From Candidatus Peregrinibacteria bacterium Greene0416_19 (GTDB lineage Bacteria; Patescibacteriota; Gracilibacteria; Peribacterales; Peribacteraceae), in assembly GCA_007375735.1 (NCBI GenBank), contig VMEW01000007.1, forward strand, positions 1,494 to 65,493: a DNA stretch of 64,000 nucleotides, written 5' to 3'. The notes beneath the pieces were generated by a model that was not told the DNA's origin, searched no databases, and worked only from the letters and a program-made list of their open reading frames with translations. Positions 1-54,272 of this stretch are shown here, piece by piece. The position numbers and the translations under genes were made by a program. The stretch's first letter is position 1, and every line of letters begins with the position of its first letter.

Positions 1-1434
1 CTCCCCATCGTTCACCAGTCGGATCTTCACTTTGTCACCCACTTTGAACTGGTAGGCGATGTCCATGTTCTCCTTCGCTGAAGCCTCATCGATCAGTTTC
101 CACTGCGTATTGTGTTTCGTAGACATGGCGTTCACCTGCGGCATCGGGTCTTCCCACTCAATGCCATCGTCGCTTTCAGGAGTCGGAGCGTTGCCGCCGT
201 GTTCTCCTCCGCCCGTGGTGAGCTTTGTCGAACCATGTTGCATGCCCCCGGGGTTTCCTTGCTGCATCATGCGCGCCGGCATCGACTCGACGGAGAGGTG
301 GATGGTTTTGTCGACGGGCTTGTCGAAGTACGGACGAAAAGCATCGATATCCCGGATGATATCGGCATGTTCACGGATCCTGTCCTGTCGCAGCCGGACC
401 GGAGGCAACGCATTATCAACGACGACCGTTCCCAAGGCATACTGAAAATCACCCGGACCCCCGTGCTCGAGAGTGTATGTCGTCGTTTCATCGAATCGAA
501 CGTCGACGATGGCCCGCTCCGATGGACTGAGAGTGACGAACGACACGCGCTGCTCGCGCTCATACCGACCGCCGTCGCCACCGACGAGTGTCAGGGGAAC
601 TAGCGATTCACTGTGCATATTTCTGACCTGGAAACGGAATGTTCGGGTATTCGCCGCATTGATGAGGTACAACCGTACGGTTCCCTGTTGAATGCCAAAA
701 CCGAAACTCAAAGGATCCGTTCCATTGATGAGCATCGTGTTCCCAAATCGTCCCATGAGCGCGTGGTTGGCCTCCTTCTCGCCGTAGGGCACGGGCAGTT
801 CACCTTCGAGGAGTATGTCATCGAGCATCAGAACCTCTTCACGGTTCACGACGCTATAGAGCTTCTCGTCTTTCGGTGTCACCCAGAGACCACCGTACAG
901 TCCCATATCCTGCTGCAAGTCCTCGCGGACGTGCGGGTGATACCAGAACATGCCTTCGTCGGGCACCTTCACGGTGTACGAAAAGCTCTCTCCCGGCTGG
1001 ATGGCCTCCTGCGTCACGCCCGCCGCGCCGTCGAATCGATTCTCCAGCCGGATGCCATGCCAGTGTATGGTCGTCGGGACATCGATGTTGTTCGTGACGT
1101 TCACCGTGAAAGTCGATCCCTGCTTCACCTTGAGGGTCGGGCCGGGGAACTGGCCGTTGTAGGCATAGAGCGCGAACGTTCTTCCGACAATCGTCGCGCG
1201 GACCAGCTCGGGGTTGAGGGTGATCGTCTCGCCGTCTTTCACTTCCAGAATACTCATCGGCTTCGCTTCGGGAAGCTGGTCGATGTTCTTGTCGCGGGCC
1301 GGAAGAAAGGAGCCCTGCATCATTCCGCCTCGATCGCCGCCCATCATGCCGCCACCGCCCATCTGATTGAAATTGGTGGGGGCACAGGCTGCGAGGAAAA
1401 GAGTTCCGATGATGAGGAACGAGCGGTACTTCAT
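1..1434 (-). CDS. Multicopper oxidase, lipoprotein; C-terminus lies beyond the window edge
   Basis: The ORF is not in the track because it runs off the window. I translated the minus strand by hand from the ATG at 1434..1432: MKYRSFLIIGTLFLAACAPT (lipobox LAAC), a Met-rich GGGGMMGGDRGGMMQG stretch, then TIHWHGIRLENRFDG and MFWYHPHVRED (the HxHG and WYHPH copper-ligand motifs of MCO domain 1). The frame stays open to position 1. Confidence 0.85.
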   Translation of the reverse strand, partial: MKYRSFLIIGTLFLAACAPTNFNQMGGGGMMGGDRGGMMQGSFLPARDKNIDQLPEAKPMSILEVKDGETITLNPELVRATIVGRTFALYAYNGQFPGPTLKVKQGSTFTVNVTNNIDVPTTIHWHGIRLENRFDGAAGVTQEAIQPGESFSYTVKVPDEGMFWYHPHVREDLQQDMGLYGGLWVTPKDEKLYSVVNREEVLMLDDILLEGELPVPYGEKEANHALMGRFGNTMLINGTDPLSFGFGIQQGTVRLYLINAANTRTFRFQVRNMHSESLVPLTLVGGDGGRYEREQRVSFVTLSPSERAIVDVRFDETTTYTLEHGGPGDFQYALGTVVVDNALPPVRLRQDRIREHADIIRDIDAFRPYFDKPVDKTIHLSVESMPARMMQQGNPGGMQHGSTKLTTGGGEHGGNAPTPESDDGIEWEDPMPQVNAMSTKHNTQWKLIDEASAKENMDIAYQFKVGDKVKIRLVNDGE

Positions 1435-1674: not shown

Positions 1675-4600
1675 TCATTGCTCCGTACAGGGAACGGTCG
1701 GATCGGCGACGCAATTCTCCACCGGCGGCTTGCCTCGCTCCGGGCAGGTCTGGGAGTAGAGACACGCATCGTCCGAAAGCGTCTGCAGCTGCTCTGGCAA
1801 TTGTTCCCCGGTCGCGCCGTACGTCAGCAGGATCCCATCGAGATCACGAAAGACGTAGCCAGGATCAAACGGCTGCTCCGTTCCGTTCACAAACATCTGC
1901 CAGCGCCGCTGCCCTGAACCGGCGGTGCCAGCCGCGTGGTTCGGGGTTCCGTCCTGGTTGCAGGCGGACGTTCCATCATCGAGCGCGATGCATTGCGCGG
2001 TGGCGATGATACCGACTGCCTTCAGAAATTCACCGACGGACTGCCCCGGTTTGTGCCGGTGGATGACGAGACCGTTGCCATCGTGCAAATGAGGATTTGT
2101 CTCCTTGTCCGGGTCAGTCGATTCTTCGCTCAGCATGTACTTCTCCCCGGAGAGATCGATTCTTCGTCCCTCAATCCACATCGCCAGATCGGCGTGCGTG
2201 TGGTTGGGATCGGGATTGACGGCGGAGAACATGTGAGGGTTCGGAGGTCCTTCCACGATGATTTCTCCCAGCGCCCCCCGGTCGATGGAGCGCGTCAGGC
2301 TGTGATCGACGAGGAGGTAGGTACCCGGCGCGTCGACGGTGAACTCCACGACGGTCGATCCGCCTGCCGGAATCGTCGTTGTCTGAACATTGCGCAGTGG
2401 CGGAGAAATTATGTCACCTTCGGAATACACTTTGTCGAAGACCGCGCCGATGACGTGGAAGTTGGAAGGAACGAAACCGCCCACGCCGATGTAGAGACGG
2501 ATGCGCTCGCCGACCTTCGCCTTCAGCGCCCCGCTTCCGCGCAACGCGCCGACGCGGCCGTTGAAGACGACATACTCGGGTTGTTCGTCGAGGAGCTTTG
2601 GAAGCGAGAAATTCTGTCGGCCTTTTCGTCCGAGTGTTCCTGACGTGTAGAGCTCGCCCTGCATGACGTAGAATTCACGATCGACTGGTTCAAGGTTTTT
2701 TTTGGGTTCCACGACGATCAGACCGTACATGCCGTTGGCGATGTGCGTGGGAACGTGCGGGCTTGCGCAGTGATAGACGTACACTCCCGGCCGGTTCGCC
2801 TTGAAGCGGAAGATCTTCGTCTCCCCGTCCGCCACCTGCGTGAGGACCGAGCCGCCTCCCGGCCCCGTGACCGCGTGGAGATCGATGGAGTGCGTCGCAT
2901 GGCCCTCGGCGGCATGGGAGGCGCTTGCCTCATGTGCATCTCCGTCGTCCTTCCCGCCATCCGCGCGTGCGCGCGGAACGAGAAGATCGAATGTGACATC
3001 GTCGGCGCTTTTTCCAGCCGTATCTTCATCACCTTCCGCATGCGTGAGCTGCAACTCGACAGTGTCGCCCTCCCGCACGCGCAGAAATGGGCCGGGAACC
3101 GTCCCATTGTACGTCCAGTATTGATAGGTCATACCGGGAGCAAGCTCCGAGATAACCTCCCTCGTTTCCAGTTTGATCACGACCGTGCCGTCATTTTTTC
3201 GTGTGATAGGCGAAGCCAGATCTGCGGCCGATCGGCTGATTTCAGGAAGTAGCCGGTCTGCAGACGACATACCCTCTGCTGTCGCACTGCTGAGCTTGGC
3301 GAAGCCGAGGAAGAGAGCCGTAAACCCGACGGCCATGAAAATTGGCGCAAAGTCCGAGAGCCAGTTCTTCCTCGTTGGATAGAAACCTTTCAGGAGAAGT
3401 GAGTTCGTGACGACGGAGACGGAGCTGAGCGCCATCGCGAGTCCGGCGAGCTCGGGCCGCAGAATAATCCCGAAGCTGATGAAGGCTCTGGCGGCGATGG
3501 GAATGCCGATCACATTGAAGAACAGCGCGAAGAACATGTTCTGTTTGATCTTCCCGACTGTCGCCTTGCTGAGCTTGATGGCGGTCACCACATCGCGCAG
3601 GTCGTTCTTCACCAGCACGATGCCGCCCGTCTCCATAGCGATGTCGGTACCGCTGCCCATGGCGATCCCGAGATCGGCCTGGGCAAGGGCGGGGCTGTCG
3701 TTGATGCCGTCGCCGACCATCGCGACGCGCTTACCCTGTTCCTGCAATTTCTTCACTTCATTCGCCTTCTCCTCCGGCAGCACCTCCGCAAGCACATGCT
3801 CAATGCCCGTCTGCCGCGCGAGGGCCAGCGCCGTGCGTTTGTTGTCTCCGGTGATCATGTAGACCGTGAGTCCCATATGCTTCAATCGATCCACTGCCTC
3901 TTTTGAGGTCTCTTTGAGCGTGTCGGCAACGGCAATAGCGCCGATGATCTCGTTTTCATCGGCGAGCAGCATTACCGTTTTTCCATCATCCTCGAGTGTT
4001 GTAATTGCCTGCTGGTGATGCGTATGCAGACGGCCGAATTCAGATTGCAATAACGCCCTGTTGCCGAGTCGATATGCTTTGCTTGCAATGTTTCCCTCGA
4101 CGCCTTTTCCTGGAATGGCACGGAAACCTTCGGTTTGTTGCATCTGTATTCCGTCTTTCTTCGCCCGCGCAACAATCGCATCGGCCAGTGGATGTTCAGA
4201 GCCCTGTTCCAAACTTGCGGCCATTTGCAGAATTTCGTCGGTTCTCATGCCTGCAATCGCGATAACATCCCTCAACTCGGGCTTCCCCTTGCTGAGCGTT
4301 CCGGTCTTGTCGAACACGATTGCATCAAGCTTGTTTGCCGCTTCGAGCGGCTCTCCGCCGCGGATAAGAATGCCGTGTTCAGCTCCTTTTCCTGTTGCGA
4401 CCATGATGCTCGTAGGAGTCGCCAGCCCCATCGCGCACGGACAGGCAATGACGATGACAGATACGAACGCAAGCAATGCGAAAGTCAGCCCAGCGCCGAG
4501 AAACATCCAGACAGCGAATGTCAGGATCGCGATGCCGATCACAGCGGGAACGAACCATGAAGAGATCCAATCGGCGAATGCCTGAATGGGAGCCTTCGAT

Positions 4601-5607
4601 CCCTGCGCTTCCTCCACGAAACGGATGATCTGGGCGAGTGCCGTCTCGGAGCCGACTTTCTCGGCGCGGAATTCGATGCTGCCGGTGCCATTCATCGTCG
4701 CACCAAAGACGCGGTCACCTTCTTTCTTCTCTACGGGAATGCTTTCGCCCGTGAGCATGGATTCATCCACGGAAGAAAGACCTTTGAGCACCGTGCCATC
4801 CACGGGAATCTTCTCCCCTGGGCGTACGACGACGATATCTCCGGCTTGCACATTCTCGATGGGAACATCCACTACTTGTCCATTCCTGAGGATGCGAGCC
4901 GTCTTCGCCTGCAAGCCCATCAGCTTCTGTATTGCCTCGCTCGTCGCGCCTTTCGCGCGCGCTTCCAGCCATTTCCCCAACAGGACGAACGTGATGAGCA
5001 AGGCGGCGACCTCGAAGTAGAGATCATGTATCTCGCCGATCACCGTTCCTTCCGTGAGGAAGTGATCAATGAAGTTGTAGAGACTGTAGAAGTAGGCGGT
5101 GGAAGTACCGATGGCGATGAGGCTGTCCATGTTGAACGTCCTCATTTTCAGGCTCGACCACATGCCCCGATAGAAGCCGTACCCCAGCCAGAACTGCACC
5201 GGCGTTGCGAGTATCAGTGAGATGATGCCCATAGAGGGTATGACTGCTTCATGGACGGGCGAATCTGGCAGAAAGGACAGCACCATAAATCCGAGCATCG
5301 GAAGGCTCAGGACCAGACCAGCCCAGAATTTCCGGCCATACGTTCGGATTTCATCCAGACGTCGCCTCTTGTCCGCCTCTCGATCCTTTTCATCCGCGAC
5401 CGCGGCACCGTAGCCCGCCGCTTTCACGGCTGCGATGAGGCCCTGTTCGTCGACTTTGCCAGGATCGAAGCGGATGCGCGCTTTGTTCGCACCATAATTC
5501 ACATTTGCCTCCTCGACACCGGCAGTCTTCTTGAGCTTCCGGGTGATGAGCGCACTGCAACTGGCACAGTGCATGCCCGTGATGGAGAGAGTAGTCTGAG
5601 AAGCCAT
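1675..5607 (-). CDS. copA: Cu(I)-translocating P1B-type ATPase (CopA) fused to a NirK-type two-domain copper nitrite reductase module and a Cys/His-rich C-terminal domain (1310 aa)
   Basis: ATPase motifs: [18 protein letters not shown] ([12 protein letters not shown]), [23 protein letters not shown]. An extra hydrophobic helix follows ([20 protein letters not shown]). Then come the NirK ligand motifs [24 protein letters not shown] and LVDHSL, followed by a tail containing [13 protein letters not shown] and multiple Cys. Confidence 0.9.
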
Positions 5608-5671: not shown

Positions 5672-5896
5672 TCACGTACGCGACAAAGGCTGGATCTTGT
5701 ACTTTTCATCAAGGGACTCGATTTCCTGCGTCCACTTCTGCATGTCGAAATGTTCGTCATGATTGAGCGTGACTTTCTTCGTATCAATATCGACCTCGGC
5801 GCTCGTGAGGGAGGGAAATCCGCTGCTCACGTCCTTGATGAGCGCAGCGCAGGAAGCGCAGTGAATGCCGGGGATGGAGACGGTAGTCTGAGGCAT
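5672..5896 (-). CDS. copZ: Copper chaperone CopZ (single HMA domain, 74 aa)
   Basis: Internal start MPQTTVSIPGIHCASCAALIKD with a GxHCxxC metal-binding motif. The longer track ORF (to 6229) overlaps csoR, so the start was trimmed to the ATG at 5896. Confidence 0.85.
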   Translation of the reverse strand: MPQTTVSIPGIHCASCAALIKDVSSGFPSLTSAEVDIDTKKVTLNHDEHFDMQKWTQEIESLDEKYKIQPLSRT

Positions 5897-5925
5897 GAGA
5901 TGAAGATGGAAGGAAGCGGAAAGGG

Positions 5926-6198
5926 TTAGGAACGTTTGGACAATCCGATGGCGTGCGTCAGCTCCTTCACGAACGCATCGTGCTGGGTCTTGGACGAGAG
6001 TTTTTTCCTTGCGCACGTGTGCAGATGGCTCTCCAGCACGATGCCCTGGATGTGCCGCAGATGTCCGTGCATGGCCAATATCTGCTCCAGAACCTCGGGG
6101 CAGTAGGTGTCCTCTTGCACCATCGTTTCCACCTTCTGCAGAAGACCGCGCAATCGTTTGAGCGCGGCGGTCACCTGGATCTTGGAGGTCGGGAGCAT
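5926..6198 (-). CDS. csoR: CsoR/RcnR-family copper-sensing transcriptional repressor
   Basis: 90 aa with YCPEVLEQILAMHGHLRHIQ...HLHTC, the C-H-C ligand pattern of the CsoR (DUF156) family. It heads the csoR-copZ-copA gene order. Confidence 0.9.
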   Translation of the reverse strand: MLPTSKIQVTAALKRLRGLLQKVETMVQEDTYCPEVLEQILAMHGHLRHIQGIVLESHLHTCARKKLSSKTQHDAFVKELTHAIGLSKRS

Positions 6199-6208
6199 GG
6201 CAGAAAGG

Positions 6209-6240
6209 GGTAGGGGGTAGTGGTACCATATCCCCCTACC
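6209..6240. promoter_or_regulatory. Candidate CsoR operator: 32-bp GC-rich inverted repeat centred on GGTACC
   Basis: GGTAGGGGGTAGTGGTACCATATCCCCCTACC has half-sites TAGGGGG / CCCCCTA, resembling the known CsoR operators (TACCC..GGGGGTA type). It lies 11 nt upstream of the csoR ATG. Confidence 0.7.
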
Positions 6241-6311: not shown

Positions 6312-7175
6312 TTATGAATCGGAATCGAGCAGCACATCGATCACTGTCTTGAAGCTTGCGAACGGTACTGCACCGGAAATTATGCGGTTTTCGTCGGTCT
6401 TCAGATTCACGACGATGTTCCCCGGCGTGCCATTCACTCCGGCGGCACTGCCGCCAGTCATGTCATCCTGTACATGCTTCGCGTACTTGCCGCTGTCGAG
6501 ACAATTCTTGAATTGCGCTTCGTCGAGGCCGAGTTCTTTTGCGAGGGGCGCGAGATTCTCGAGCGGGAATCCCGTGCCACCGGCGACGGTCCGCTCGAAG
6601 ATGGCATCCGTGTATTTCCAGAATGCGTCGTTGCCGCCAAACTCATTTGCGCACTCGGATGCCTCGGCTTCCTTCTGGGCGTTCGCGTGGAAGCTCAAAG
6701 GGAAGTGGCGGTAGACCCAGACAACATCGTCCTTATAGGCATCCATGATCTGCTTCATCGTCGGATGATGCCGCTGGCAGAACGGGCACTCGAAGTCCGA
6801 ATATTCGACGACGGCAACCTTTGCCTTCGTGAAGTCTCCACGGATGTGATCAATCTTTGCACTGATCGGAGGAAGATTGTCTGTCGATGTCGGCTCAGGA
6901 GGTTGTTGGGGAGCCGGTGCTGCCGGGGCTTGAGCGACTTGGGCGGGAGGACTCCCTGCAGATGTGGGAAAGTTTCCCGTGCGCCACTTGCCGATTCCGA
7001 AGCCGACGATCAGTCCCATCAAGCCGAGAGAGACTGTGAACCATGGATTCGACCCGTTCGATGAACTCAGGTCAAGCTGGCTCACCACAGGTGGATTGTT
7101 GGCCGAGGAAGGGATCGATGATCGCTGAGAGCTTCCAGCGTTTTTCTGCGGCGTGTCTTGCCATTGGATTGCCAT
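6312..7175 (-). CDS. DsbA-family thiol:disulfide oxidoreductase, membrane-anchored
   Basis: N-terminal TM segment (WFTVSLGLMGLIVGFGIG), a Pro/Ala linker, and a thioredoxin fold with the active site SDFECPFCQRHHP. Confidence 0.85.
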   Translation of the reverse strand: MAIQWQDTPQKNAGSSQRSSIPSSANNPPVVSQLDLSSSNGSNPWFTVSLGLMGLIVGFGIGKWRTGNFPTSAGSPPAQVAQAPAAPAPQQPPEPTSTDNLPPISAKIDHIRGDFTKAKVAVVEYSDFECPFCQRHHPTMKQIMDAYKDDVVWVYRHFPLSFHANAQKEAEASECANEFGGNDAFWKYTDAIFERTVAGGTGFPLENLAPLAKELGLDEAQFKNCLDSGKYAKHVQDDMTGGSAAGVNGTPGNIVVNLKTDENRIISGAVPFASFKTVIDVLLDSDS

Positions 7176-8623: not shown

Positions 8624-9034
8624 TCACAGTCTCAAGACGATCGTGTCAGTGTGAATGGCAGTGGGCGGCGCGGTCGCGGGAGGAACGGCAACCGAGGCAG
8701 TCTGAGATGCTGCGGAGATGATGGGGATCGGGTTAGCAGTTCCGATGTGCGGCGCATCGAAGGTTACCGCGCTAGCAGCAGCGTTCTGTGATTGGGAAAA
8801 ACAATGTCCGGCGCATCCTGTCTGTTGCCGCGACTGGTCCCCGTCATTCAGTTGCACTTGTACGCAATGATCGCAGTTGGCAGGAGACATCGGAAACATC
8901 GGCGTCATGACCATTTCCATGTGTACCGCGTACGGCATCGCCGTGTCCTCTGCAAAGGCCATCGGCATCACGCAGAAATTGCCGATGACAACGTGGACGG
9001 CGAAGACAATGCTTACGGGTATTCTCATGCTCAT
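8624..9034 (-). CDS. Secreted Met/His/Cys-rich small protein, possible Cu-binding
   Basis: Signal-like N-terminus, then AMPYAVHMEMVMTPMFPMSPANCDHC and GCAGHC. The context is the last gene of the copper island. Confidence 0.55.
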   Translation of the reverse strand: MSMRIPVSIVFAVHVVIGNFCVMPMAFAEDTAMPYAVHMEMVMTPMFPMSPANCDHCVQVQLNDGDQSRQQTGCAGHCFSQSQNAAASAVTFDAPHIGTANPIPIISAASQTASVAVPPATAPPTAIHTDTIVLRL

Positions 9035-9459: not shown

Positions 9460-12400
9460 ATGCTGACATACGCATACAAGCGCCGGCGCATCACGGAATT
9501 CGGTGAAGCCAAACGTGTTTTCTTCGAGCCCGGACAGGTGGAGAACGACCTGATGCAGGCGATGGGCGCCGGCAAGCCGTCCCCGCCGGGAGAAACCGGG
9601 AAGGAAAACGTGGACGGCAAAGGCGGCGGGCCGGCTGCTCCTCCGGAGAAAGCCGACCCGAAGGCGGTGGAACAGCAGCAGGTCAAGAGTTTGCTCGATG
9701 ATGTGCAGCGGCGGCAGGAGCAGGCGGCACAACTCAAGCTGCCCGCACCACTGACAAAATCCATCTTCGACAACTACGCGCGCTACCTGGTGGCCTCCGC
9801 GCCAATCTACGACAAAAACCGGAACCGGGTCATTGAGGATGCCACCGCAGAGAAGCAGGAGAGCGAGTTCGCCGCCTACAAGAAGGCGATGCTGGAGAAG
9901 ATCGATGCGGTGCTCAAAGAAGTCTCGGGCGGCGCCGAGCAGGCCAAGAAGGAACAGAAGAAGCAGGAGGAAGAGCAGATGAAATCAGTGGATGAGGAGC
10001 TCAAGGCGATTCAAGAGAAAGTCGATCGCGGCGAACTGGAGAAGATCGCCCCCACGCCCGATGCGCTGCAGGCCGCGTACCAGCGGTACGAACAACGGAC
10101 GGCGGCGCTCGAGACGTACGGGAAAAACCTCGGAACGCAGGTGACGGCGGTTGAGCGCGTGCAGAAGGCGTACGCGAAGGAAATGGAGGGATCGACGCTC
10201 AACGCGGTCGGCGCGACCGGCTTCGTGGCGACCGGAGCGCTCGCGGGATCGTTCATCCCCGGTGTGGGCACCGCCATCGGCGCCGGTGTGGGGCTGCTGA
10301 GCTACATGGCCGTGCGGGCCGGCAGTTTCTTCGTCAACCGTGCCGAGCGCCAGAAGCGAGCAGCGGACATCCAGCAGAAGATCGATGTGGTCAAAGGCCA
10401 TCTTGAGGAGGGGCAGAAGCATGTCACCGCCGAACTCGGCGTCTTTGACGAAGGCGGCGATGCCATCCTGAAGACGACGACGCAGATCCGCGAGAACACG
10501 TACGCTCAAACAGACGAAGCGAAGAAAGGCCTCGAGAGCCAGAAAGAAAAAATCAGTCAGGACCTGGCAGCGACGCAGGCGAAAACATCCGAAGTTCTGA
10601 CGCAGGAGGAACAATTGAGCGAAACGCAGGAGAAAATTGCAGAGCGGCAGCGTGAGGTCACGCAGAAACAGCAAGAACTTAAGAGCGCAGCCGCCGATGC
10701 CGCCAGGAAAGCTGCGACACCCAACGAAGTCGTATCAACTGCAGCCGATGGAAATGCCGGATCGCAGAAGGCAGTCGATGTGCAGGCACAACTGCAGCAA
10801 GCGGCACAAGATGCGGAGGCACTCGAGAAGCAGCTGGGAACTGCCTACCAAGAAGTGGTCGGACAACAGATGATTCTTGGCACAGGACGCCAGGAACTGG
10901 AGCAGCATGCGTCGCTGCAGGAAGTGGGAATGCAGAAGCTTGACCAACAAAAGGAACTGCTCGGACAGACGCTCGAAGGCGAGATGCAGCATCTCGACGC
11001 GCATCACAAGGAAGTGCAGGACGGCATACTAGGATCGACGCTCCGCCATCACGCGGTCGCCACGCAGGTGGAGGGTCAGTACCACTCGATCAAGGACGTG
11101 AAGGTGGAGGAGCCGGGCTTCGTGCAGCACGTGATCGAGAACACCTTCGGCGGCATCAAGGACGGCCTCAACGGCCTGGCCAAACCGCTCAACGGCATCC
11201 CCGGCCTGAGCGTCGTGGGCGGCGTGCTGGAAGGCGCTGGCGAAATGGTCAACGGCATCGGCACTATGATCGCTCACCCGGTACAGACAGTGGAGGGGCT
11301 GAGCGCGCTCGCGGGTTTGAACAAGGACGTGAGCGCGTCCGACGCCTGGAAGGAGATGGGCAAAGCGCTGATCTCGTACGAGGATTTTTCGAAAGGAGAT
11401 TACGGCAAGGGAATAGGCAAGATCGTCTTCAACATCGCCACTACCGCCACCGGAGCGGGCGCGGCGATGAAGGGGGCGCAGGTGGCAACCATCTTGTACC
11501 GCACCTCCATGGTCGGGAAGGCCGGCGCGCTCGCGGCATCCAAGGCGTTCGTGAAGGCGACTGCGGTCGGCGTCGGTGTCGGCACGAAAGAACTTGCGGT
11601 CGGCGCGCTGAAGGTACCGGGAGAGTTCGTAAAAGACGCCGGAAAGATGATCACAACCCCGTACCGGCTCGGCCGCCGCGCGGCCATCGGCGACGCGCGG
11701 CACCTTGGAGAAGTTGCTGACAACCTCACCAGGACGGGAAGTATCCTCAAGGGAAAGATTGATGAGCTGGACATCGGGAAGCACATCACTGCAATCGCGG
11801 ACAGTCCGGTTCCGCTCGCGGACCTGACAAGCGAGCAACTGACTGCGCTGGGGAAGAACAGCGAAGAGCTCGTCAGGCTGGGCATCAAGGATGCAAAATC
11901 CATCTCCAAGTTCCTGGAACTCAAGAAGATGGTCGGTGAGCAGGAGGGGCTGCGCCGCACCATCGCTGCGACTGAACGAGCGAAGGATATTGCGGAGCTG
12001 CCGAAGGATGTTCGTTCCAAACTTTCGCGTACCGAAAATGAGCTCAACTCACTCGAGCAAAAAGCCGCCGCGGCGGAGCGGCAGGCGCAACGCACCGGCG
12101 AAGCCGGCGCGCCGGAGCGGATGCAGGCGGCGCGTGCTCCCATGGATGCCAAGATGGAGGCGCTTCTGCAGGATCTGCAGAATACAGCCGGTGACTTGGG
12201 CAAGGAATTTTGCAAGGAACGGGCCGGTACGGTGCTCCTCCATGGTGATAGCGGCGTGGTTGCCATCGGCCCCGATGGATTCCTGCAAGTGGTGAAGGCG
12301 ACGGAACTCGACGCATTCCTTGCGAAGGTCGCCGGTCCAGGCGCCCGCTTTGCCGACAAGACAGCGGCGCGCTGGCATGTGGCCGAGCGGATAACGGGCC

Positions 12401-15400
12401 GCAAGCTCACTCCTCGTCAGCAGGATGCCGTGCTGCGCGCGCATGAGGTGGGCTCCGCGCGCGGGGCAAAGATCCACGAGTACACTCCTGCCGAGATCGG
12501 CGAGAAGGCTCGCATCCTGGACGAAGCCGGCTTCTCCAAAGCCGAGCGGCGGGCGCTGATGGAGCGCGGGGTGTGCGGGGAGGGGGTAGGAGCAGAAGCT
12601 GCATCCGAAGCGCAATATTATGTCAACAAGGGGCGGGAATTAGCGGATGCCGTGGAAAACGGGAGTGAGCCGCTCTACACAGTGGACAGTTTTGACGAGT
12701 ATGGACATGTATTTACCCGAGATCTGCCGCTTGATGTCATACGGGATACTGAGCTTGATGCGATTAGAGATCCTGCATTGCGGAGACTGGCAAAAGAACG
12801 CCGTCAGGCTGAGAATGTCAGATTCAGGCAGAAGCAAAAAGACGGCGCAATCGCCGACGCGCAGATCGAGCATCTGGATGAGATGAGGGAGGTGAGTCGG
12901 GAGGCGTATGAGAGAGCGAGGGCGAAACTGAATGAGAAACAATCCGCAGCCCGCAAGCCGCGATCGAATCCGAGCCCGGAAGCCGCCGCCAAGCTGCCTT
13001 TTGAGGACGCAATTTCGGGAGGAAACATCGATGATGCTCTGATCCTCAAGTTTGACGACGCGTTGGCCGCACGTTATGCGAAGGCCAGCCCTGAATTGTT
13101 GGAGAATGTGTATGAAACAGCAGAGGCATTGTACTTCATCAAAGATGAAGAAGCTCTTTCAACAGCGTACTGGGCTATTCAAACTCAACTGCAAAAACAC
13201 TACGAAACACAGTTCACAAATCAGCTGCTTACAGAAGCACATTTGCAAGACATAGAGTCGCTGCGTGCGTGGTTTCGGCAGAAGAAGGATGCGTGTGATT
13301 CTTTCAGTGCCGTGGATGTGCTGAAATCAAGCGTCATCGATGACATTGAGCGTAGGTTTCTTTCGGACATTGATTCCAACGTCCCCGTCCGTTCTCCGTC
13401 GTCGGAACAGATCGCGCTGCGTGAGAGGTGGAACAAGCTGCCACAGGCTCAACGGGACGGGATACAGTACGTGAAAGAACAGGGCTGGAAGAGGAACGAG
13501 AAACTGATCATCGAAGTCACGGAGGGCAAGAAAGAGACAGTGACCCTGAATGGAGTGACGCGGGACGGGCGAGTGGAACTGATCAGGGAGGACGGTAGCC
13601 GCGCGCTCTTCGATCGAGATGGTACGCACTCTTATGACAATAACAAGAAATATGAATATCTGCCTGCCCGGGTTAATGAACAGAAGGATCTGGTCGATGC
13701 CATGTCCGTTGCTCAGAAGGAAGGGATCCAGGCCGCCCGCGAGTATCGACATTCGAAGGGAAGTGTCGTGAACTTTCGCGACACGAAAACCCATGAGATC
13801 TCATCGGCGACATTCGAAGGGGTGATGCCTGACGGACGGTGGCGCTTTCGGAGGGAAAACGGCGAGCGATTTGCTCACGATTATCTGAAAGGCTCGGACG
13901 AAGTTCTACCCTCCACACCGAATAAGTCCGTCCCCGCTGATGTTGCACCGCCTCCGGCGGTTTCCAAGAAACCAAGTTTGAAGCCCAGTCCGGCGTCACG
14001 CTTGCCTGACACTGACCTCAACAATGCGTCGCATTACGGCGAATCGCTTGCCGAACAAGTGCGCAGTTCCGAGTATCAAGGTACCACGATTACTATCGAG
14101 CCGAACGGGGATTTCACCATCCTTCCGGTGGAAGTGGCGACAGCGGAGGAACTGCATTTTTATTTTAATAATGTTGAGAAAGATCCGGCGGTCGGCAAAG
14201 CGATCGAGGATGCCAAGAAACCGGCTCTCGCTGCTGATCGCGCAGCGGCGAGAAAGGCGTTTAACGCCAAACGAACGGAACTGAAAGCCCGCGACCGGGC
14301 AGAGTTCGCTAATGAGAGTGGAGCCACTGAGGTGCGAATGGAAGCCACGGTGGCTCCTACCACGGCGCCACGGCAACCCGCTTCTCCGTACGTGGCTGAG
14401 CGGAAACAGCTTGCGGATGTGCGATCGCAGCTGGTCCAAAAGCTCGATAATGCCACGGACAACAAGACGCGCGCTCTCCTGGAGCAGTCGCTTCGTGATG
14501 TTGAAAACAAGATCGACGCCTCCTTCGCCACCCAGCGAACCGAGCTGATCAAGCGATGCCAGGATACATCGCTGCCCGTCCCCGAGCACGAGAAGGTATT
14601 GCTGCAGCTCAAACAGCATTGCGCCAAGATGGAAATCCGCAGCGAGTTGTACTCGACGTTCAAACTGGAGCCGCAACTCTCTCCTATCTCTCTCAAGAAA
14701 ACATCGCTTCTGCGTGGGGAGTATCTCAAGAGCGGATACGAGGTTCTGGGCAGGGGAAAGACGCGGTATCCGGGGAAAACCGGCGTGATCGAGGTGGAGG
14801 AACTGCTCATCGGGAAGTGGGACAAGGCGAAAAACGAGTATCTGACTTTGCAGGTTGCCGCAAAAGACGTGGCGACGTGGGAAATGAACCTCTATAAGAC
14901 AATCCGCGGCAAATCGGACAGCGAGCTCGTCAGTCGCTTCCACGAATTGAAAAAGATGAAGAAGAAGGAACTCTCGCCGGAATTGACAGAGGAGATTCGC
15001 GTGTGCGATGCCGAGCTGCGTCAGCGCGGCGGCATCGGGAAGGTGGAGGAGAATATCAATAACCAGAAAACGCTGGATGCCTGGCGGGAGCACAAATCGA
15101 AGACCGCTGGGGCGAAAACAGGCGCTGCCGCAGAGATATTTAGCTTGCAACGCTTTGACAAACTATTGGCCAAATACACCGGTTACATCAATGATCCGAA
15201 AGGGATGGAGCGCATCGGCGCCGACATCGCTGTTCTTGAGAGGAGTGGAGCCGATGCTGGAAAACTAGGCGAGCTCATGGAGCTTCGCAATCTGATGCAG
15301 GTAAGGCCAAAGGTGAAGCAGCCGCCACCGCTCAGCAAATGGCGACCGGGTGACAGCATTCAAGGTCGCACGCTCCGCGCCGCAGATGGCAGCGAACTGC

Positions 15401-16563
15401 CGGCACTGGACTACAAGGTAGTGAGCATCAAAGAAGGCAATCCGCCGACGGTGGTGCTGGAGGCAACCAGTGGAGCCAGCTATGGCATGGTGGGTAAGCA
15501 GGTGGAGGTGAAAGTTGCAGATTTGAATGAAATGGCGAAATCGAAGCCCCCACCGAAGCCCCCGATTGGCACCGCAGGCGCAAAGAATCCTGCTCCAGAT
15601 GCACCTCCCGCGGCCGTACCAAGAGCAAAGAATGCACCTCCCGATACGGTCCCTGCGAAGCTGCCGAAGGACGTACTGGCGGAGGAAGCGGCGCGGGTCG
15701 CCGCGCTGCGGCGCAGCGCGGAAGCGAAGGCTGCGGGCGTCGATGTCACAGAAATGGTCCATAAACGCGATGAACTGTACAAGCAACTTGAAGAGCTTGA
15801 GAAAAAATATCCGGATTTCGACAGCTACACGCCCGAGTATTATAGAAAATTCAGTGAGTCGAGTGAACCAGTCAAACTTCTCGATCGGAAGATCGTCCGG
15901 CAGCAGTGCGAGGCGATGACGACCGAAGAACTGGAGGCGCTCATCACCCAGGAGACGCAAGGAACCAAGTTCGAAGCATTGGCCGACAAAACCCTGTGGA
16001 ATTACGACCGTTCCGAGATCATGGGGGACCTGCTTGGGGAAAAGCGGCTGCAAGAGCGGTATCCTCTCGGCCTTGCCGAGGAACGCAAGAAATACTTCAA
16101 CGAATGCGTGTCCCAGTGCCGGCGCATGGGCGATCGTCAATTGATGGAAAAGTACGTCGCGCTGATCAGCAGAAAATCGAAATCAGAGGATGACATCCTC
16201 ACTCAACTCGCAATGGAGACACGGTTGTGGGTGAAAGGCCGTCCGCCGGATCTCGTCGTGGGCCGCTTCCAGGCGATGACCAAGCAGGGATACCAGCTCG
16301 CCGATCTGCGCAATGCGGACGCCGCCAAATTGGAATCACTCGGTTGCAGGGCCGGTGAGACCGTGAAGGTGCGGGCAGAGGACGGTCAGTTTCGGACTCA
16401 CAGGATTGAAGGAATCGAAGGTAATTTTGTGAGCATGGAAGACATCTTTCTTGGGATCAATCTGAGCGACACCCCCGTATGGGTGAAGCCAGGCAAGGAC
16501 GTGCCGGAAATTGTCATCGATATGAATGGGCCGCTGACGAAAGGAGTGGACGACATGGGATAA
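9460..16563 (+). CDS. Giant protein (2367 aa) with long coiled coils, Gly-zipper hydrophobic segments and repeated small beta-rich modules; function unknown
   Basis: Uninterrupted 7.1-kb ORF with coding-like composition. Contains GATGFVATGALAGSFIPGVGTAIGAGVGLLSY, Q/E/K-rich heptad-like stretches, tandem modules at 13438-13890, and PPKPP/AP-rich linkers. Confidence 0.85.
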   Translation: MLTYAYKRRRITEFGEAKRVFFEPGQVENDLMQAMGAGKPSPPGETGKENVDGKGGGPAAPPEKADPKAVEQQQVKSLLDDVQRRQEQAAQLKLPAPLTKSIFDNYARYLVASAPIYDKNRNRVIEDATAEKQESEFAAYKKAMLEKIDAVLKEVSGGAEQAKKEQKKQEEEQMKSVDEELKAIQEKVDRGELEKIAPTPDALQAAYQRYEQRTAALETYGKNLGTQVTAVERVQKAYAKEMEGSTLNAVGATGFVATGALAGSFIPGVGTAIGAGVGLLSYMAVRAGSFFVNRAERQKRAADIQQKIDVVKGHLEEGQKHVTAELGVFDEGGDAILKTTTQIRENTYAQTDEAKKGLESQKEKISQDLAATQAKTSEVLTQEEQLSETQEKIAERQREVTQKQQELKSAAADAARKAATPNEVVSTAADGNAGSQKAVDVQAQLQQAAQDAEALEKQLGTAYQEVVGQQMILGTGRQELEQHASLQEVGMQKLDQQKELLGQTLEGEMQHLDAHHKEVQDGILGSTLRHHAVATQVEGQYHSIKDVKVEEPGFVQHVIENTFGGIKDGLNGLAKPLNGIPGLSVVGGVLEGAGEMVNGIGTMIAHPVQTVEGLSALAGLNKDVSASDAWKEMGKALISYEDFSKGDYGKGIGKIVFNIATTATGAGAAMKGAQVATILYRTSMVGKAGALAASKAFVKATAVGVGVGTKELAVGALKVPGEFVKDAGKMITTPYRLGRRAAIGDARHLGEVADNLTRTGSILKGKIDELDIGKHITAIADSPVPLADLTSEQLTALGKNSEELVRLGIKDAKSISKFLELKKMVGEQEGLRRTIAATERAKDIAELPKDVRSKLSRTENELNSLEQKAAAAERQAQRTGEAGAPERMQAARAPMDAKMEALLQDLQNTAGDLGKEFCKERAGTVLLHGDSGVVAIGPDGFLQVVKATELDAFLAKVAGPGARFADKTAARWHVAERITGRKLTPRQQDAVLRAHEVGSARGAKIHEYTPAEIGEKARILDEAGFSKAERRALMERGVCGEGVGAEAASEAQYYVNKGRELADAVENGSEPLYTVDSFDEYGHVFTRDLPLDVIRDTELDAIRDPALRRLAKERRQAENVRFRQKQKDGAIADAQIEHLDEMREVSREAYERARAKLNEKQSAARKPRSNPSPEAAAKLPFEDAISGGNIDDALILKFDDALAARYAKASPELLENVYETAEALYFIKDEEALSTAYWAIQTQLQKHYETQFTNQLLTEAHLQDIESLRAWFRQKKDACDSFSAVDVLKSSVIDDIERRFLSDIDSNVPVRSPSSEQIALRERWNKLPQAQRDGIQYVKEQGWKRNEKLIIEVTEGKKETVTLNGVTRDGRVELIREDGSRALFDRDGTHSYDNNKKYEYLPARVNEQKDLVDAMSVAQKEGIQAAREYRHSKGSVVNFRDTKTHEISSATFEGVMPDGRWRFRRENGERFAHDYLKGSDEVLPSTPNKSVPADVAPPPAVSKKPSLKPSPASRLPDTDLNNASHYGESLAEQVRSSEYQGTTITIEPNGDFTILPVEVATAEELHFYFNNVEKDPAVGKAIEDAKKPALAADRAAARKAFNAKRTELKARDRAEFANESGATEVRMEATVAPTTAPRQPASPYVAERKQLADVRSQLVQKLDNATDNKTRALLEQSLRDVENKIDASFATQRTELIKRCQDTSLPVPEHEKVLLQLKQHCAKMEIRSELYSTFKLEPQLSPISLKKTSLLRGEYLKSGYEVLGRGKTRYPGKTGVIEVEELLIGKWDKAKNEYLTLQVAAKDVATWEMNLYKTIRGKSDSELVSRFHELKKMKKKELSPELTEEIRVCDAELRQRGGIGKVEENINNQKTLDAWREHKSKTAGAKTGAAAEIFSLQRFDKLLAKYTGYINDPKGMERIGADIAVLERSGADAGKLGELMELRNLMQVRPKVKQPPPLSKWRPGDSIQGRTLRAADGSELPALDYKVVSIKEGNPPTVVLEATSGASYGMVGKQVEVKVADLNEMAKSKPPPKPPIGTAGAKNPAPDAPPAAVPRAKNAPPDTVPAKLPKDVLAEEAARVAALRRSAEAKAAGVDVTEMVHKRDELYKQLEELEKKYPDFDSYTPEYYRKFSESSEPVKLLDRKIVRQQCEAMTTEELEALITQETQGTKFEALADKTLWNYDRSEIMGDLLGEKRLQERYPLGLAEERKKYFNECVSQCRRMGDRQLMEKYVALISRKSKSEDDILTQLAMETRLWVKGRPPDLVVGRFQAMTKQGYQLADLRNADAAKLESLGCRAGETVKVRAEDGQFRTHRIEGIEGNFVSMEDIFLGINLSDTPVWVKPGKDVPEIVIDMNGPLTKGVDDMG

Positions 16564-16704: not shown

Positions 16705-17115
16705 ATGCCTGAACCACAAACATCCACAAATCAAGATCCGGCAGGGCAGAATCCGGCGTCAGCCGGCAGCCAGCAGGGCGGCCAGACTGCCGTTCCCATG
16801 CTCCCAGAGGTATTGGAAGGCGGCGCTCTCTATGACCAGATCATGACCGCGATAGAACCGGAACTGACGTCGACGGTGTATCCGACACTGGCGGAAAAAT
16901 ATAAAGACGAGACCCCGGAGCAGGCGAAGGTGCGGGCGGAGCGGTACGCGAAGGCAATGGAGGAGTATAAGAAACAACTCCAGAAATACGGGGCTGATTT
17001 TGGCGGAAAGGTGCGTACCTTCCAGCACGGTGTGCGCAAATCCATGGAAGCCGACGATCGGAACCGCGAAACCAGTAACATGTCCGGATTGGAAGATGCC
17101 ATCTCCAATTTGTAG
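16705..17115 (+). CDS. Hypothetical protein (136 aa), low-complexity N-terminus followed by a helical region
   Basis: ORF with coding-like composition. No recognisable domain. Confidence 0.6.
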   Translation: MPEPQTSTNQDPAGQNPASAGSQQGGQTAVPMLPEVLEGGALYDQIMTAIEPELTSTVYPTLAEKYKDETPEQAKVRAERYAKAMEEYKKQLQKYGADFGGKVRTFQHGVRKSMEADDRNRETSNMSGLEDAISNL

Positions 17116-17185
17116 AGCCATGCACACGCTGTTCCAACACAGGCGTTTCTCCCCCAGCAAAGAGCAGAGGCTGTGTTTTCACAGC

Positions 17186-30877: not shown

Positions 30878-31023
30878 AGTCCTCGGAGCGCATGCTTCTA
30901 CTATAGAGAAGTCCTCTAGAGAGGAAACCGAAGAAACCGACGATTCCGAGGATTCCTGTTTTTCCTTCGCGCGAAGCGCGATCGTCGGACTCCTCGGTTT
31001 CCTCGGACTCTTCGGACTCCTCA
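30878..31023. repeat. 9-nt-periodic palindromic repeat, intergenic copy (dnaE upstream / operon 3' end)
   Basis: GAGGAAACCGA AGAAACCGA CGATTCCGA GGATTCC ... ATCGTCGGACTCC TCGGTTTCC TCGGACTCT TCGGACTCC. The arms are mutually complementary. Confidence 0.7.
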
Positions 31024-32619
31024 CCGTATCCCCGCCCCCGCCTTGCACTTCTGCCACCGCGGGTTTGCGGGATCGGTATCGGAGACGAACGTGCCTTTCG
31101 CGTAGGGGAAACACTCGTCCGTCGTGATGATCCGCATGACCTGTTCCAGGCGCTTGTTGCACGGGCGGAAGATGCAGGAACGTCGGAGGAAATAGGCGAA
31201 GTCCCGCACGAAGCCGCGGAGCGTCCGCTCCCCTCCGGGTTGGCCGAGCGTCGTCCCGACGGTCACGAGCCGCCCCACGGCTTGGCTCAGGTTGGAGAAG
31301 GCGGCGCGCCCGACCAAGCTCGGATCGGTACCGGCCGCGATAGTCATGCTCTCTTTCTGCGCCTGCTGCGTTTCGAACTCGCGCACGCCGGTCGCAGCCT
31401 GTCCGCCCATCAGCCGGTAGAGCCAGCTGCCGTCCAGCTGGAAGGAGCGCGGCGCCGTGCCGCGTGCGCCGAAGCTCCGGCGCAGGTCCACGTACTGTCG
31501 CAGCAGCCGCTCCTCGTCCCGCTCCAGCGAGAACGGCCCGCGCAGTTCGTACGCCAGCGCCCCCTCCAGCTTCTGGCAGACGTTCTGTCCTCCGCAGTCA
31601 GCATCGGCCCCGCACGTGATGTTGAAGTCGTTCGAACATGTCCCAACCTCCGAGGACGCGACGCAGCGTCCTATCTGCAACCTCGAACACACGGCATCGC
31701 TGTTGCAGGGAGTCATGGCATCGCCGGTGCACGCGCCGTCCAGGATGCACATGGTCCGTCGCCGGTGCTTGCGGGTGACATCCGGAGGAACCGGCGTCTG
31801 CAGCGTCCCGTTAGTCTGGAACGGCATCGACTGCATCGCCCGGTCGAACTGCGCCGTGTAGGACTGGTAGCGCCCGGCGGCGATGATGGCGCTGATGATG
31901 CCAGCGCGCTGCTGGGAGATGGCGTCCCGCAGCCACTGTCCGTCCGGATGGGTGCGGATGCGGCTCATGGCCCTGTTGAGCCCGTCCAGGTCGCACCCGT
32001 AGCCGGAGAGGCCCGGCGGCAGGTAGTTGGAATCGAACGCGCAGAACGAGACGAGCGGGTCCAGGACGAAGCGCGGATCATCGAACGGGCGTCGCACGTT
32101 CCACGAGCTGTCGATGGACGTGGGATCGCGGGCGCCCTGCAAAAGGATCTTGTAACGTTCATTCAGGAACTGCAGCAGCTGGGAGAGCAGATTGACGCTG
32201 GCAACCTTCCGCGCGTCCACGGCTCGCGTCATGGCATCCGCCACGCGCTTCATTTCCCCTTCGAGCAGGAACAGGTCGGTGCGCAGGCAGGCCGAGTTGT
32301 CCGTCAGGGACCGCCCCTGCGCCACGATCTGCCTCGTGACGTCCGTTTGCGCCGCAATCGCCGCCACCACGTTCCGCTGCCAGTGGAGCCTGTCGAAGCC
32401 GGCCGCAGGGGTCGGTGGGAATGAGGATCCCGTCGTGTACGTCCTGGCGGCCCTCGACCGGTTGAGGACGAAGTCCACGTAGTTGGATGGCTCCGCCGCC
32501 GCCGCTAACCGGATGTGCACCGTCAGACTCAGGATGATGGTGAGCATGCTGCTGCAGAGCAGTCGCGACGCGCGACGTCTGCGGATCGGTGCCAGTGAGG
32601 GTGAGTGGCGCATGATCAT
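31021..32619 (-). CDS. Secreted Cys-rich protein E of the five-gene operon (532 aa); function unknown
   Basis: Start MIMRHSPS overlaps the upstream stop as ATGA. Signal peptide ...TVHIRLAAAAEP. A Cys cluster is present (CILDGACTGDAMTPCNSDAVCSRLQIGRCV...CSNDFNITCGADADCGGQNVC). Confidence 0.75.
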   Translation of the reverse strand: MIMRHSPSLAPIRRRRASRLLCSSMLTIILSLTVHIRLAAAAEPSNYVDFVLNRSRAARTYTTGSSFPPTPAAGFDRLHWQRNVVAAIAAQTDVTRQIVAQGRSLTDNSACLRTDLFLLEGEMKRVADAMTRAVDARKVASVNLLSQLLQFLNERYKILLQGARDPTSIDSSWNVRRPFDDPRFVLDPLVSFCAFDSNYLPPGLSGYGCDLDGLNRAMSRIRTHPDGQWLRDAISQQRAGIISAIIAAGRYQSYTAQFDRAMQSMPFQTNGTLQTPVPPDVTRKHRRRTMCILDGACTGDAMTPCNSDAVCSRLQIGRCVASSEVGTCSNDFNITCGADADCGGQNVCQKLEGALAYELRGPFSLERDEERLLRQYVDLRRSFGARGTAPRSFQLDGSWLYRLMGGQAATGVREFETQQAQKESMTIAAGTDPSLVGRAAFSNLSQAVGRLVTVGTTLGQPGGERTLRGFVRDFAYFLRRSCIFRPCNKRLEQVMRIITTDECFPYAKGTFVSDTDPANPRWQKCKAGAGIR

Positions 32620-52427: not shown

Positions 52428-52571
52428 GTTTCCACCGGTTTTCCACCGTTATCCACAGCTCTGTGGAAAACCCTGCGGAACGCATTGTACTATCTTTTGC
52501 TCTTCCGATCAGTATACAGCGCTCATCCAGGCAGCTCGTATTCCACAGTATCCGACCATGAATGTGGAAAA
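52428..52571. promoter_or_regulatory. Cluster of six DnaA-box-like 9-mers
   Basis: TTATCCACA at 52449-57 (perfect). TGTGGAAAA at 52462-70 and 52563-71 (reverse complement TTTTCCACA, fits TTWTNCACA). TTTTCCACC at 52439-47 and TATTCCACA at 52539-47 (1 mismatch each). GTTTCCACC at 52428-36 (2 mismatches). Confidence 0.55.
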
Positions 52572-52586
52572 CGTACAAGGATTCAG

Positions 52587-54209: not shown

Positions 54210-54272
54210 TGTTGTCCGGAAATCAATGCAACCTTATTGGTGTCTGTGGTTTCGTTTGATAGACTCCGTTCT

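Follow-up and report, generated by a model that had tools for sequence, protein, structure and literature searches.

Why should a copper enzyme that works outside the cell membrane be encoded in one polypeptide with a pump that exports copper? This question is raised by a single open reading frame (ORF) in a 64,000-nucleotide stretch of the genome of Candidatus Peregrinibacteria bacterium Greene0416_19 (GenBank assembly GCA_007375735.1, contig VMEW01000007.1, positions 1,494 to 65,493), hereafter called the window and used as the reference for all coordinates. From its N-terminus the encoded protein comprises a CopA-type P1B-1 copper ATPase, an additional transmembrane helix (helix 9), a NirK-type copper nitrite reductase module and a His/Cys-rich tail. 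An initial annotation of the sequence proposed that the extra helix places NirK outside the membrane as a self-metallating, tethered enzyme, or alternatively that the module serves the pump as a copper sink or sensor.

Characterized NirKs and multicopper oxidases function outside the cytoplasm, and the periplasmic PCuAC-like chaperone AccA is required for the activity of AniA, the NirK of N. gonorrhoeae. Release of Cu(I) to the outside by P1B pumps and the acquisition of copper by outside cuproenzymes like NirK are each understood only in part, and have been studied through transient contacts between proteins. Cuproenzymes receive their metal outside the cytosol; for example, CopA passes Cu(I) to periplasmic CusF and CueO, and CopA2/CcoI passes it to SenC/PccA and from there to the cbb3 oxidase (PMC7558416). 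NirK has been described earlier in bacteria of the candidate phyla radiation (CPR), in a study that found its ligands conserved and left its physiological role unresolved (Danczak et al. 2017, PMC5581439), and both this role and the supply of electrons to the enzyme are acknowledged puzzles (PMC5581439).

Here we utilize a combination of homology searches, codon comparisons, structure predictions and gene neighborhoods to describe this fusion and its relatives. While the component families are textbook ones, the sequence comparisons point to what we regard as the main new finding, a family of nine-helix copper pumps that carry interchangeable passengers at their C-terminus.

Conservation of the fusion as a single polypeptide

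The domain structure proposed by the initial annotation was borne out (Table 1). The frame is uninterrupted over all 1310 residues, every quoted motif lies where it had been reported, and Pfam and NCBIfam scans return the expected HMA, P-type ATPase, Cu-oxidase and NirK models. Pfam places HMA at residues 6-66, E1-E2_ATPase at 232-411 and Hydrolase at 428-645, along with matches to Cu-oxidase_3 and Cu-oxidase_2. The ATPase motifs are GMHCASCS (residues 11-18), TGES (286-289), CPC (389-391), DKTGT (433-437), SEHPLA (470-475), the GDGxND region (632-641) and MALSS (725-729), while those of NirK are HSIDLH (906-911), the His-Cys-x7-His-x4-Met region (945-962), NFHVIG (1049-1054) and LVDHSL (1099-1104). 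Two quoted tail motifs sit at residues 1131-1140 and 1173-1185. One count had to be corrected, as the tail holds six Cys (residues 1206, 1216, 1282, 1288, 1299 and 1307) rather than at least seven.

The same architecture recurs in at least 12 other clusters. A search with the full-length protein returned 12 further 90%-identity clusters of 1286-1324 amino acids (aa), with 73-82% identity and 100% query coverage, that stem from JGI, NCBI, ENA and Logan assemblies with contigs of up to 1.2 Mb. Among GTDB species-representative genomes, the matches to the junction, NirK and tail (77-83% identity) are all metagenome-assembled genomes (MAGs) labeled 'Candidatus Peribacteria' or 'Patescibacteria group'. 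Every genome that carries a name is Candidatus Peribacteria.

For five loci, the orthologous ORFs were additionally compared codon by codon, segment by segment. The single ORF is kept in all five, and across segments the proportion of synonymous differences (pS) is 0.49-0.78, which is near saturation, with a proportion of nonsynonymous differences (pN) of 0.06-0.39. The resulting ratio of nonsynonymous to synonymous rates (dN/dS) is about 0.08 for the ATPase core, 0.035-0.09 for the loop with helix 9, 0.04-0.07 for NirK, 0.06-0.13 for the tail and 0.16-0.27 for an insert within NirK. These values (0.03-0.27 overall) indicate that every segment of the fusion is under purifying selection. There is no step in GC content at the junction between ATPase and NirK.

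One related locus (L002, NCBI GCA_016187665.1) has a stop within the ATPase N-domain, so that the 1-2279 locus is divided into ORFs at 24-527 and 534-2279. Despite this upstream stop, the ATPase C-terminus, helix 9 and NirK remain in one frame. The internal stop, which reflects either a pseudogene or an assembly error, accounts for the NCBI annotation of a 347-aa 'nitrite reductase' whose Met start lies inside helix 9. Taken as a whole, the comparisons indicate that the fusion is genuine and that one polypeptide is encoded in this Candidatus Peribacteria (CPR) bacterium.

Nine-helix pumps with interchangeable passengers

The N-terminal 745 residues match the NCBIfam Cu-ATPase model TIGR01511 with 627.6 bits (cutoff 397), and TIGR01525 is matched with 667.3 bits (cutoff 346.25). 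All of the P-type core motifs (DKTGT, TGES, GDGxND and MITGDN) are present. Of the transmembrane metal-site signature, CPC in M4 and MALSS in M6 are found, while M5 reads FFN in place of the IYN of A. fulgidus CopA. CopA of A. fulgidus (3J09) aligns over residues 4-745, covering MA, MB and M1-M6, with the alignment ending after M6. The family norm is eight helices and a cytoplasmic C-terminus; here the eight canonical helices align to 3J09 and a conserved ninth is added. The pump core is still a member of the P1B-1 family even though its architecture departs from that norm, and its activity would be the export of Cu(I).

In solved CopA structures the end of M6 lies on the cytoplasmic side. Here it is followed by a basic loop (3 Lys/Arg vs. 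1 Asp/Glu), by an uninterrupted hydrophobic stretch of 18-20 residues with a hydropathy of 1.76, and then by a Ser/Ala/acidic linker. With nine helices instead of eight, the C-terminus would therefore lie outside the cell membrane. Several lines of evidence, independent of one another, support the proposed placement of NirK on the outside by the ninth helix. Stand-alone NirK+tail homologues open with lipoprotein-type signals such as LLLTAC and LLLAGC, and among 139 stand-alone tail proteins 130 have a hydrophobic N-terminus and 65 a lipobox-like motif. Additionally, an outside location of the tail is indicated by its six conserved Cys together with the DsbA-like and DsbD_2 genes of the operon. 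These observations argue strongly that both NirK and the tail are outside the membrane.

We classified the 120 closest ATPase homologues by what comes after M6. The helix 9 motif RNWLSD-AP--M--GFTALF--FAK(I/L)SS is present wherever the end of M6 could be located. What follows the helix varies greatly in this tally, which is approximate, with regular-expression misses corrected by means of tree labels and a BLAST check. Nothing follows in about 65 clusters (770-800 aa), which stop within a few residues. The remainder carry NirK and tail (~13 clusters, ~1290 aa), NirK alone (~8, 1105-1167 aa), the tail alone (~24, ~945-960 aa), a domain of ~200 aa termed domX (~9, ~1000-1030 aa), tail plus domX (~3, ~1175 aa) or a three-domain multicopper oxidase (~3, ~1264 aa); two further homologues appear truncated. 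The ninth helix belongs to the pump lineage, in which plain nine-helix CopAs are common, and not to this fusion in particular; the comparison indicates that it is a lineage-wide feature of Peribacteria CopA. An origin of helix 9 from a NirK signal peptide can be ruled out, as ~65 of the 120 closest CopAs have the helix and then stop.

A neighbor-joining tree of the ATPase core, made without support values and used solely for its qualitative interleaving, shows the passenger types interspersed among one another. For example, the closest neighbor of the window protein has no passenger other than the tail, and a plain pump is the sister of another NirK+tail pump. The history of the passengers is therefore one of repeated gain, loss or exchange. 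P0365, a pump that is more divergent, has a ninth helix of its own plus the tail, which suggests that the theme reaches beyond a narrow clade.

All of the passengers with a recognizable fold are copper proteins. In the CopA-multicopper oxidase fusions (P0185, P0191 and P0205) the passenger resembles the lipoprotein oxidase that is encoded downstream of copA in the window and in the related locus L091, which suggests that these fusions arose by joining of neighboring operon genes. The domX passenger is found alone (P0174, P0178, P0181, P0204, P0214, P0215, P0220, P0221 and P0238) or behind the tail (P0182, P0188 and P0192). It has the His-rich motifs FQHLHP and GHSVL.SP...F.HTH, and no match to it was found in Pfam, NCBIfam or PDB sequences.

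The nitrite reductase module

The NirK module matches TIGR02376 (Cu_nitrite_red) with 300.5 bits against a cutoff of 296.3 over residues ~795-1131, in two stretches; the margin is narrow because an insert splits the match in two. The closest solved structures by sequence are H. denitrificans NirK (2DV6, E=1e-93) and AniA (1KBV and 5TB7, E about 1e-92), along with the cores of other multi-domain NirKs. The type-1 copper ligands His906, Cys947, His955 and Met960 and the type-2 ligands His911, His946 and His1102 are in register with 2DV6 and 1KBV, which upholds the initial ligand assignments. Catalytic Asp909 (in HSIDLH) and His1051 and Ile1053 (both in NFHVIG) likewise align with 2DV6 and AniA. 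Asp909 and His1051 correspond to Asp98 and His255 of AcNiR, and Ile1053 to the Ile over the type-2 copper site. An AlphaFold2 model of residues 773-1310 has a mean predicted local distance difference test score (pLDDT) of 86.9 and a predicted template modeling score (pTM) of 0.82, and Foldseek matches the modeled NirK to the 6THE core with a TM-score of 0.97 and a root-mean-square deviation of 1.5 A, and to AniA with TM-scores of 0.92-0.94, so that the module has the two-cupredoxin-domain fold of the family.

Judged by alignment and model, the module looks competent as an enzyme. The alternative in which it is a copper sink or sensor for the pump is less likely, as conservation covers both the metal ligands and the catalytic Asp, His and Ile, and selection on the module is as strong as would be expected of a working NirK. 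Of the 120 closest NirKs, 108-118 retain the ligand motifs.

The initial annotation also drew attention to an Asp/His-rich insert. It is present as a gap of ~47 residues relative to solved NirKs, located directly before the first type-1 copper His ligand, and its middle (residues ~865-889) is predicted to be disordered (pLDDT <50). CPR-clade NirKs generally carry the insert (median ~54 aa including flanks, 14% His). It is a general feature of CPR NirKs and not a specific feature of the fusion.

There is also a second class of CPR NirK fusions, of 705-776 aa, in which an N-terminal DsbD-type polytopic domain (PF02683) precedes NirK. Its members are P0050, P0056, P0069, P0073, P0075, P0078, P0086, P0087, P0089, P0092, P0096, P0097 and P0103; in P0056 the NirK module is preceded by about 8-9 hydrophobic segments, and one member of the class is named Candidatus Wolfebacteria.

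The tail domain

The C-terminal stretch, described at first as a tail of the fusion, belongs to a separate and widespread family that also occurs on CopA without NirK. A tail-only search returned 448 clusters; those listed are mostly 'hypothetical proteins' of 170-260 aa, and the named organisms among them are Peregrinibacteria or Patescibacteria. When 1.84 billion representative proteins were searched with a profile, 1371 matched at E<=1e-3. In some of these the domain lies behind a DsbA-like thioredoxin domain or at the C-terminal end of another P-type ATPase. Among stand-alone tail genes, one adjoins a gene for a CopZ-like HMA protein, and one in another genome adjoins a Cupredoxin_1 gene and lies near a DsbD_2 gene.

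An alignment of 81 sequences has invariant N7, P8, D9, H12, H14, D16, H49, H51, H59 and H61 (tail numbering) as well as invariant C82, C158, C164, C175 and C183, with C92 nearly invariant. The hallmark of the family is thus three HxH motifs, an NPD and six Cys. There is no Pfam match to the tail even at E=10 and no NCBIfam or PDB sequence match. A confident AlphaFold2 model of the tail (pLDDT 86.8, pTM 0.84) gave nothing below E=0.1 when compared with the PDB by Foldseek; the weak resemblances are to beta-grasp folds, namely the transcobalamin beta domain, a 'putative metal binding protein' (3U7Z) and ThiS or SAMP. With regard to a heme c or cupredoxin donor domain, a CxxCH motif is missing from the tail, Pfam gives no match at E=10, and Foldseek alignments of NirK plus tail with three-domain NirKs cover the core alone (~340-350 columns). 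These results indicate that the tail is an independent, uncharacterized extracytoplasmic domain family. A Gly/Ala-rich loop of the tail (residues ~1219-1234, window ~1906-1953, reverse strand) is absent from the orthologues and has a pLDDT of <50.

Proposed function and alternatives

The function that we favor, and consider reasonably probable, is that of a nine-helix copper exporter that displays copper-using clients at its own exit. A rise in Cu(I) would cause CsoR to release the operon, CopZ would hand Cu(I) to the pump, and ATP hydrolysis would drive the ion across the membrane. There Cu(I) would exit beside the pump's own tethered modules and be captured by them. The tail is probably a copper chaperone and the first acceptor, since no passenger is more frequent and no other task for it is apparent. 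NirK would then be loaded with two coppers per subunit and, in a cell without a periplasm, would work at the surface as a trimer tethered to the membrane; direct transfer of copper from pump to passenger and the formation of the trimer are steps that we infer. CPR cells appear to be single-membraned with an S-layer, and an SLH-domain protein is encoded in the window. Tethering combined with a local copper supply would make sense because a single-membraned cell would lose a soluble enzyme or free copper. The initial suggestion of a self-metallating NirK is also consistent with the comparative evidence, in that the same pump is fused to other cuproenzymes and is encoded with CsoR and CopZ.

Several observations weigh against such a function. 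The YN signature of M5 (ALIYNVILIP in A. fulgidus CopA) reads FN in the window protein (residues ~700-711, window 3475-3510, reverse strand), with the Asn retained and the Tyr replaced by Phe; close relatives have either FN or YN, the latter being kept in P0179 and L002. The tail has no sequence or fold match to CusF, PCuAC, Sco/SenC, CopC or CopG in Pfam, NCBIfam, the PDB or Foldseek searches, and no electron donor for NirK is evident within the window. Because NirK functions as an obligate trimer, its assembly would need to bring three pumps together, and CopA is not known to form trimers. Finally, the passengers could all be copper proteins merely because these are the genes available downstream in cop operons.

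This last point leads to the alternative that survives best, although we consider it unlikely, in which helix 9 is an anchor and nothing more. The helix would replace a lipid anchor and copper would reach NirK by diffusion or through other chaperones. Fusions would have arisen by loss of the stop codon and signal peptide between operon neighbors, with co-expression and membrane retention as the gain. The stand-alone NirK+tail and multicopper oxidase proteins are indeed lipoproteins, copA is immediately followed by a multicopper oxidase gene in several loci, that of the window among them, passengers are frequently gained and lost on the ATPase tree, and in other CPR NirKs the fusion partner is DsbD, a different membrane protein. 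However, out of many possible anchors it is this pump that repeatedly bears copper-related modules, the roughly 24 clusters of tail-only fusions contain no enzyme in need of an anchor, and helix 9 is highly conserved even where there is no passenger.

A rather improbable alternative concerns the substrate of the enzyme and not its placement. Exported Cu(I) would itself be the electron donor of the tethered NirK, which would act as a nitrite-dependent cuprous oxidase that converts toxic Cu(I) to Cu(II) without oxygen. CueO-type oxidases oxidize Cu(I) that is supplied by CopA (PMC7558416), and the fusion would be an anoxic counterpart of the CopA and CueO pair, with the His/Asp-rich insert by the type-1 copper as the substrate-copper site and the tail as a copper relay. 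In support of this, the gene is located in a resistance operon of CsoR, CopZ, CopA and multicopper oxidase genes and not in a denitrification cluster, sister pumps are fused to a three-domain multicopper oxidase, and the predicted-disordered, His-rich insert of CPR NirKs directly precedes the first type-1 copper His. The puzzles over the role and electron supply of CPR NirK would be accommodated as well, and if true this function would explain why NirK is retained in CPR bacteria without respiratory chains. However, the insert is also present in CPR NirKs that are not fused to a pump, and the nitric oxide produced is itself toxic. We know of no precedent for Cu(I) as an electron donor to NirK, and found none in the literature that we searched.

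Cleavage of the fusion is a still more doubtful alternative. Helix 9 would serve as an internal signal sequence, with the passenger cut near '...AKLSS-A' and then released or re-anchored. Plain nine-helix CopAs do end exactly at '...FAK(I/L)SS', and small residues (Ser-Ser-Ala) follow the helix in many fusions. However, a hydrophobic stretch of 18-20 residues has the length of a membrane helix and not of a signal peptide, and the surroundings of the putative cut site are variable. Lastly, an artefact in which a missed stop, frameshift or chimeric assembly joined separate copA and nirK genes, for which the stop in the ATPase N-domain of the related L002 MAG might be cited, is effectively excluded by the recurrence of the same in-frame junction in 12 or more further clusters whose samples and assemblers are independent and by codon-level conservation, with junction substitutions that obey codon structure, no break in GC content, and an ATPase C-terminus, helix 9 and NirK that remain one ORF in L002 itself.

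Relation to known systems

With CopA P1B-1 pumps of known structure (A. fulgidus 3J09/7R0G, L. pneumophila 3RFU) the fusion shares the CxxC HMA domain, MA, MB and M1-M6, the TGES, CPC, DKTGT, HP, GDGxND and MxxSS motifs, and CopZ and CsoR as gene partners. It differs from them by the ninth helix, a C-terminus on the predicted outside, 350-570 extra extracytoplasmic residues and FN in M5. The NirK module resembles AniA and other class II NirKs (1KBV and 5UE6, and the cores of 2DV6 and 6THE) with about 45% identity and an N-terminal membrane tether. However, the tether is a transport ATPase where that of AniA is a lipid, and the fusion adds a 47-aa insert and the C-terminal His/Cys-rich domain. 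A NirK core combined with extra domains is also present in three- and four-domain NirKs (R. pickettii 3ZIY, P. haloplanktis 2ZOO, H. denitrificans 2DV6 and Bradyrhizobium ORS 375). The known additions are cytochrome c or cupredoxin electron donors, whereas the fusion adds a pump and a domain for which no relationship to those donor types could be detected.

The copper relays CopA-CusF, CopA-CueO and CcoI-SenC follow the same logic of a P1B pump, an outside acceptor and a cuproenzyme, and the first two are the nearest precedents for the proposed transfer. Those relays consist of separate proteins in transient contact, whereas the pump, a candidate acceptor and the enzyme are here in one chain. 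A further likeness is to IcmF, in which the MeaB chaperone is fused to its client, a B12-dependent mutase (PMC11672702). IcmF also joins a cofactor-delivery protein and the enzyme that it serves, but it is soluble and cytoplasmic, handles another cofactor and involves no membrane transport step. The DsbD-NirK proteins (e.g. P0056 and P0069, Candidatus Wolfebacteria) share a CPR-clade NirK, the insert and a polytopic membrane partner; they differ in that the partner is of the DsbD type (PF02683) and not a pump, and in having no tail domain.

We found no prior description of a CopA-NirK or CopA-multicopper oxidase fusion in the literature searched, from which most subscription journals were outside the scope. 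Neither a ninth helix of P1B pumps nor the tail domain is mentioned in the same literature, which included papers on Peribacteria genomes, CPR NirK and copper homeostasis. A natural chain of pump, candidate acceptor and enzyme provides direct 'Rosetta-stone' evidence of joint function, as well as a single construct for reconstitution and cryo-electron microscopy. The modular family additionally flags two uncharacterized domain families, the tail and domX, as candidate copper-handling modules, and the fusion is relevant to the question of what NirK does in CPR bacteria. Surveys of nirK that rely on gene names would overlook such fusions. These proteins should be of high interest to both the metal-homeostasis and nitrogen-cycle fields.

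The copper locus and its surroundings

Table 1. Segments of the fusion protein and neighboring features of the copper locus (window coordinates)
Feature	Position	Strand	Support or remark
CopA-helix 9-NirK-tail fusion	1675..5607	-	one ATG-initiated ORF, 1310 aa; stop codon 1675-1677
N-terminal HMA metal-binding domain, cytoplasmic, GMHCASCS	5410..5592	-	Pfam PF00403, 50.3 bits
P1B-1 ATPase core, aa 91-745, helices MA, MB, M1-M6	3373..5337	-	Pfam, NCBIfam, 3J09 alignment
Ninth transmembrane helix, aa 753-772, after basic loop	3292..3351	-	hydropathy, flanking charges, conservation, dN/dS
Ser/Ala/acidic linker between helix 9 and NirK, aa 773-794	3226..3291	-	first 8 residues pLDDT <50
AniA-like (class II) NirK module, aa 795-1124	2236..3225	-	TIGR02376, PDB alignments, Foldseek
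Asp/His/Ala-rich insert in NirK, aa 856-903	2899..3042	-	gap vs. 2DV6 and 1KBV
His/Cys-rich tail domain, aa 1125-1310 (186 aa)	1678..2235	-	81-sequence alignment, AlphaFold2
Met/Cys/His-rich protein, 136 aa, signal-peptide-like N-terminus, first gene of locus	8624..9034	-	L085 homologue at same position
HMA (cytoplasmic) + DsbD_2 membrane domain + C-terminal Cupredoxin_1, 452 aa	7197..8555	-	Pfam
DsbA-like thioredoxin-fold protein, N-terminal membrane anchor	6312..7175	-	PF13462, PF01323
32-nucleotide G5/C5 palindrome, candidate CsoR operator	6209..6240	.	similar arms upstream of csoR in L085 and L091
CsoR-family copper-sensing repressor, 90 aa	5926..6198	-	PF02583, 59.2 bits; 51% identity to L085 CsoR
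CopZ-like HMA chaperone, 74 aa	5672..5896	-	PF00403; same position in relatives
Three-domain multicopper oxidase lipoprotein, LFLAAC lipobox, Met/Gly-rich N-terminus	1..1434	-	runs off window start

Relatives show the same gene order, both those whose CopA has a passenger and those whose CopA has none. The fusion therefore holds the place of a canonical copper-induced efflux pump and not that of a denitrification gene. The Met/Cys/His-rich protein that opens the locus has no Pfam match. The 452-aa protein is conserved in all of the related loci inspected and has a C-terminal C...CxMxM motif, which we take to be a CupA-type Cu(I) site. Its cupredoxin was considered as a donor to NirK and rejected, as this motif is not the His/Cys/His/Met set of a blue-copper protein.

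The palindrome is situated between the -10-like hexamer of a promoter-like site (TTGACA-18-TATGGT), with which it overlaps, and the start of csoR. It is a candidate operator by comparison with CsoR boxes, and CsoR would presumably regulate the operon. A scan of the window for promoters and terminators gave counts no higher than those in shuffled sequence. A 185-aa ORF at 5672-6229 was considered as a single HMA protein and discarded as a spurious long frame, the real genes there being those of CsoR and CopZ.

The rest of the window is ordinary chromosome, with genes for DnaE, AspRS, GluRS, MurA, MurB, MurG, FtsW and the SLH-domain protein. A 2367-aa ORF at 9460-16563 (forward strand) has no Pfam match, and the same is true of ORFs of about 650-1200 aa at 17000-19672 (forward) and at 31021-32997, 32616-36152 and 37160-40195 (all reverse). 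A 574-aa protein with the lipase-maturation-factor domains LMF1 and LMF1_C is encoded at 52485-54209 (forward), where it adjoins the SLH-domain protein at 54237-55949.

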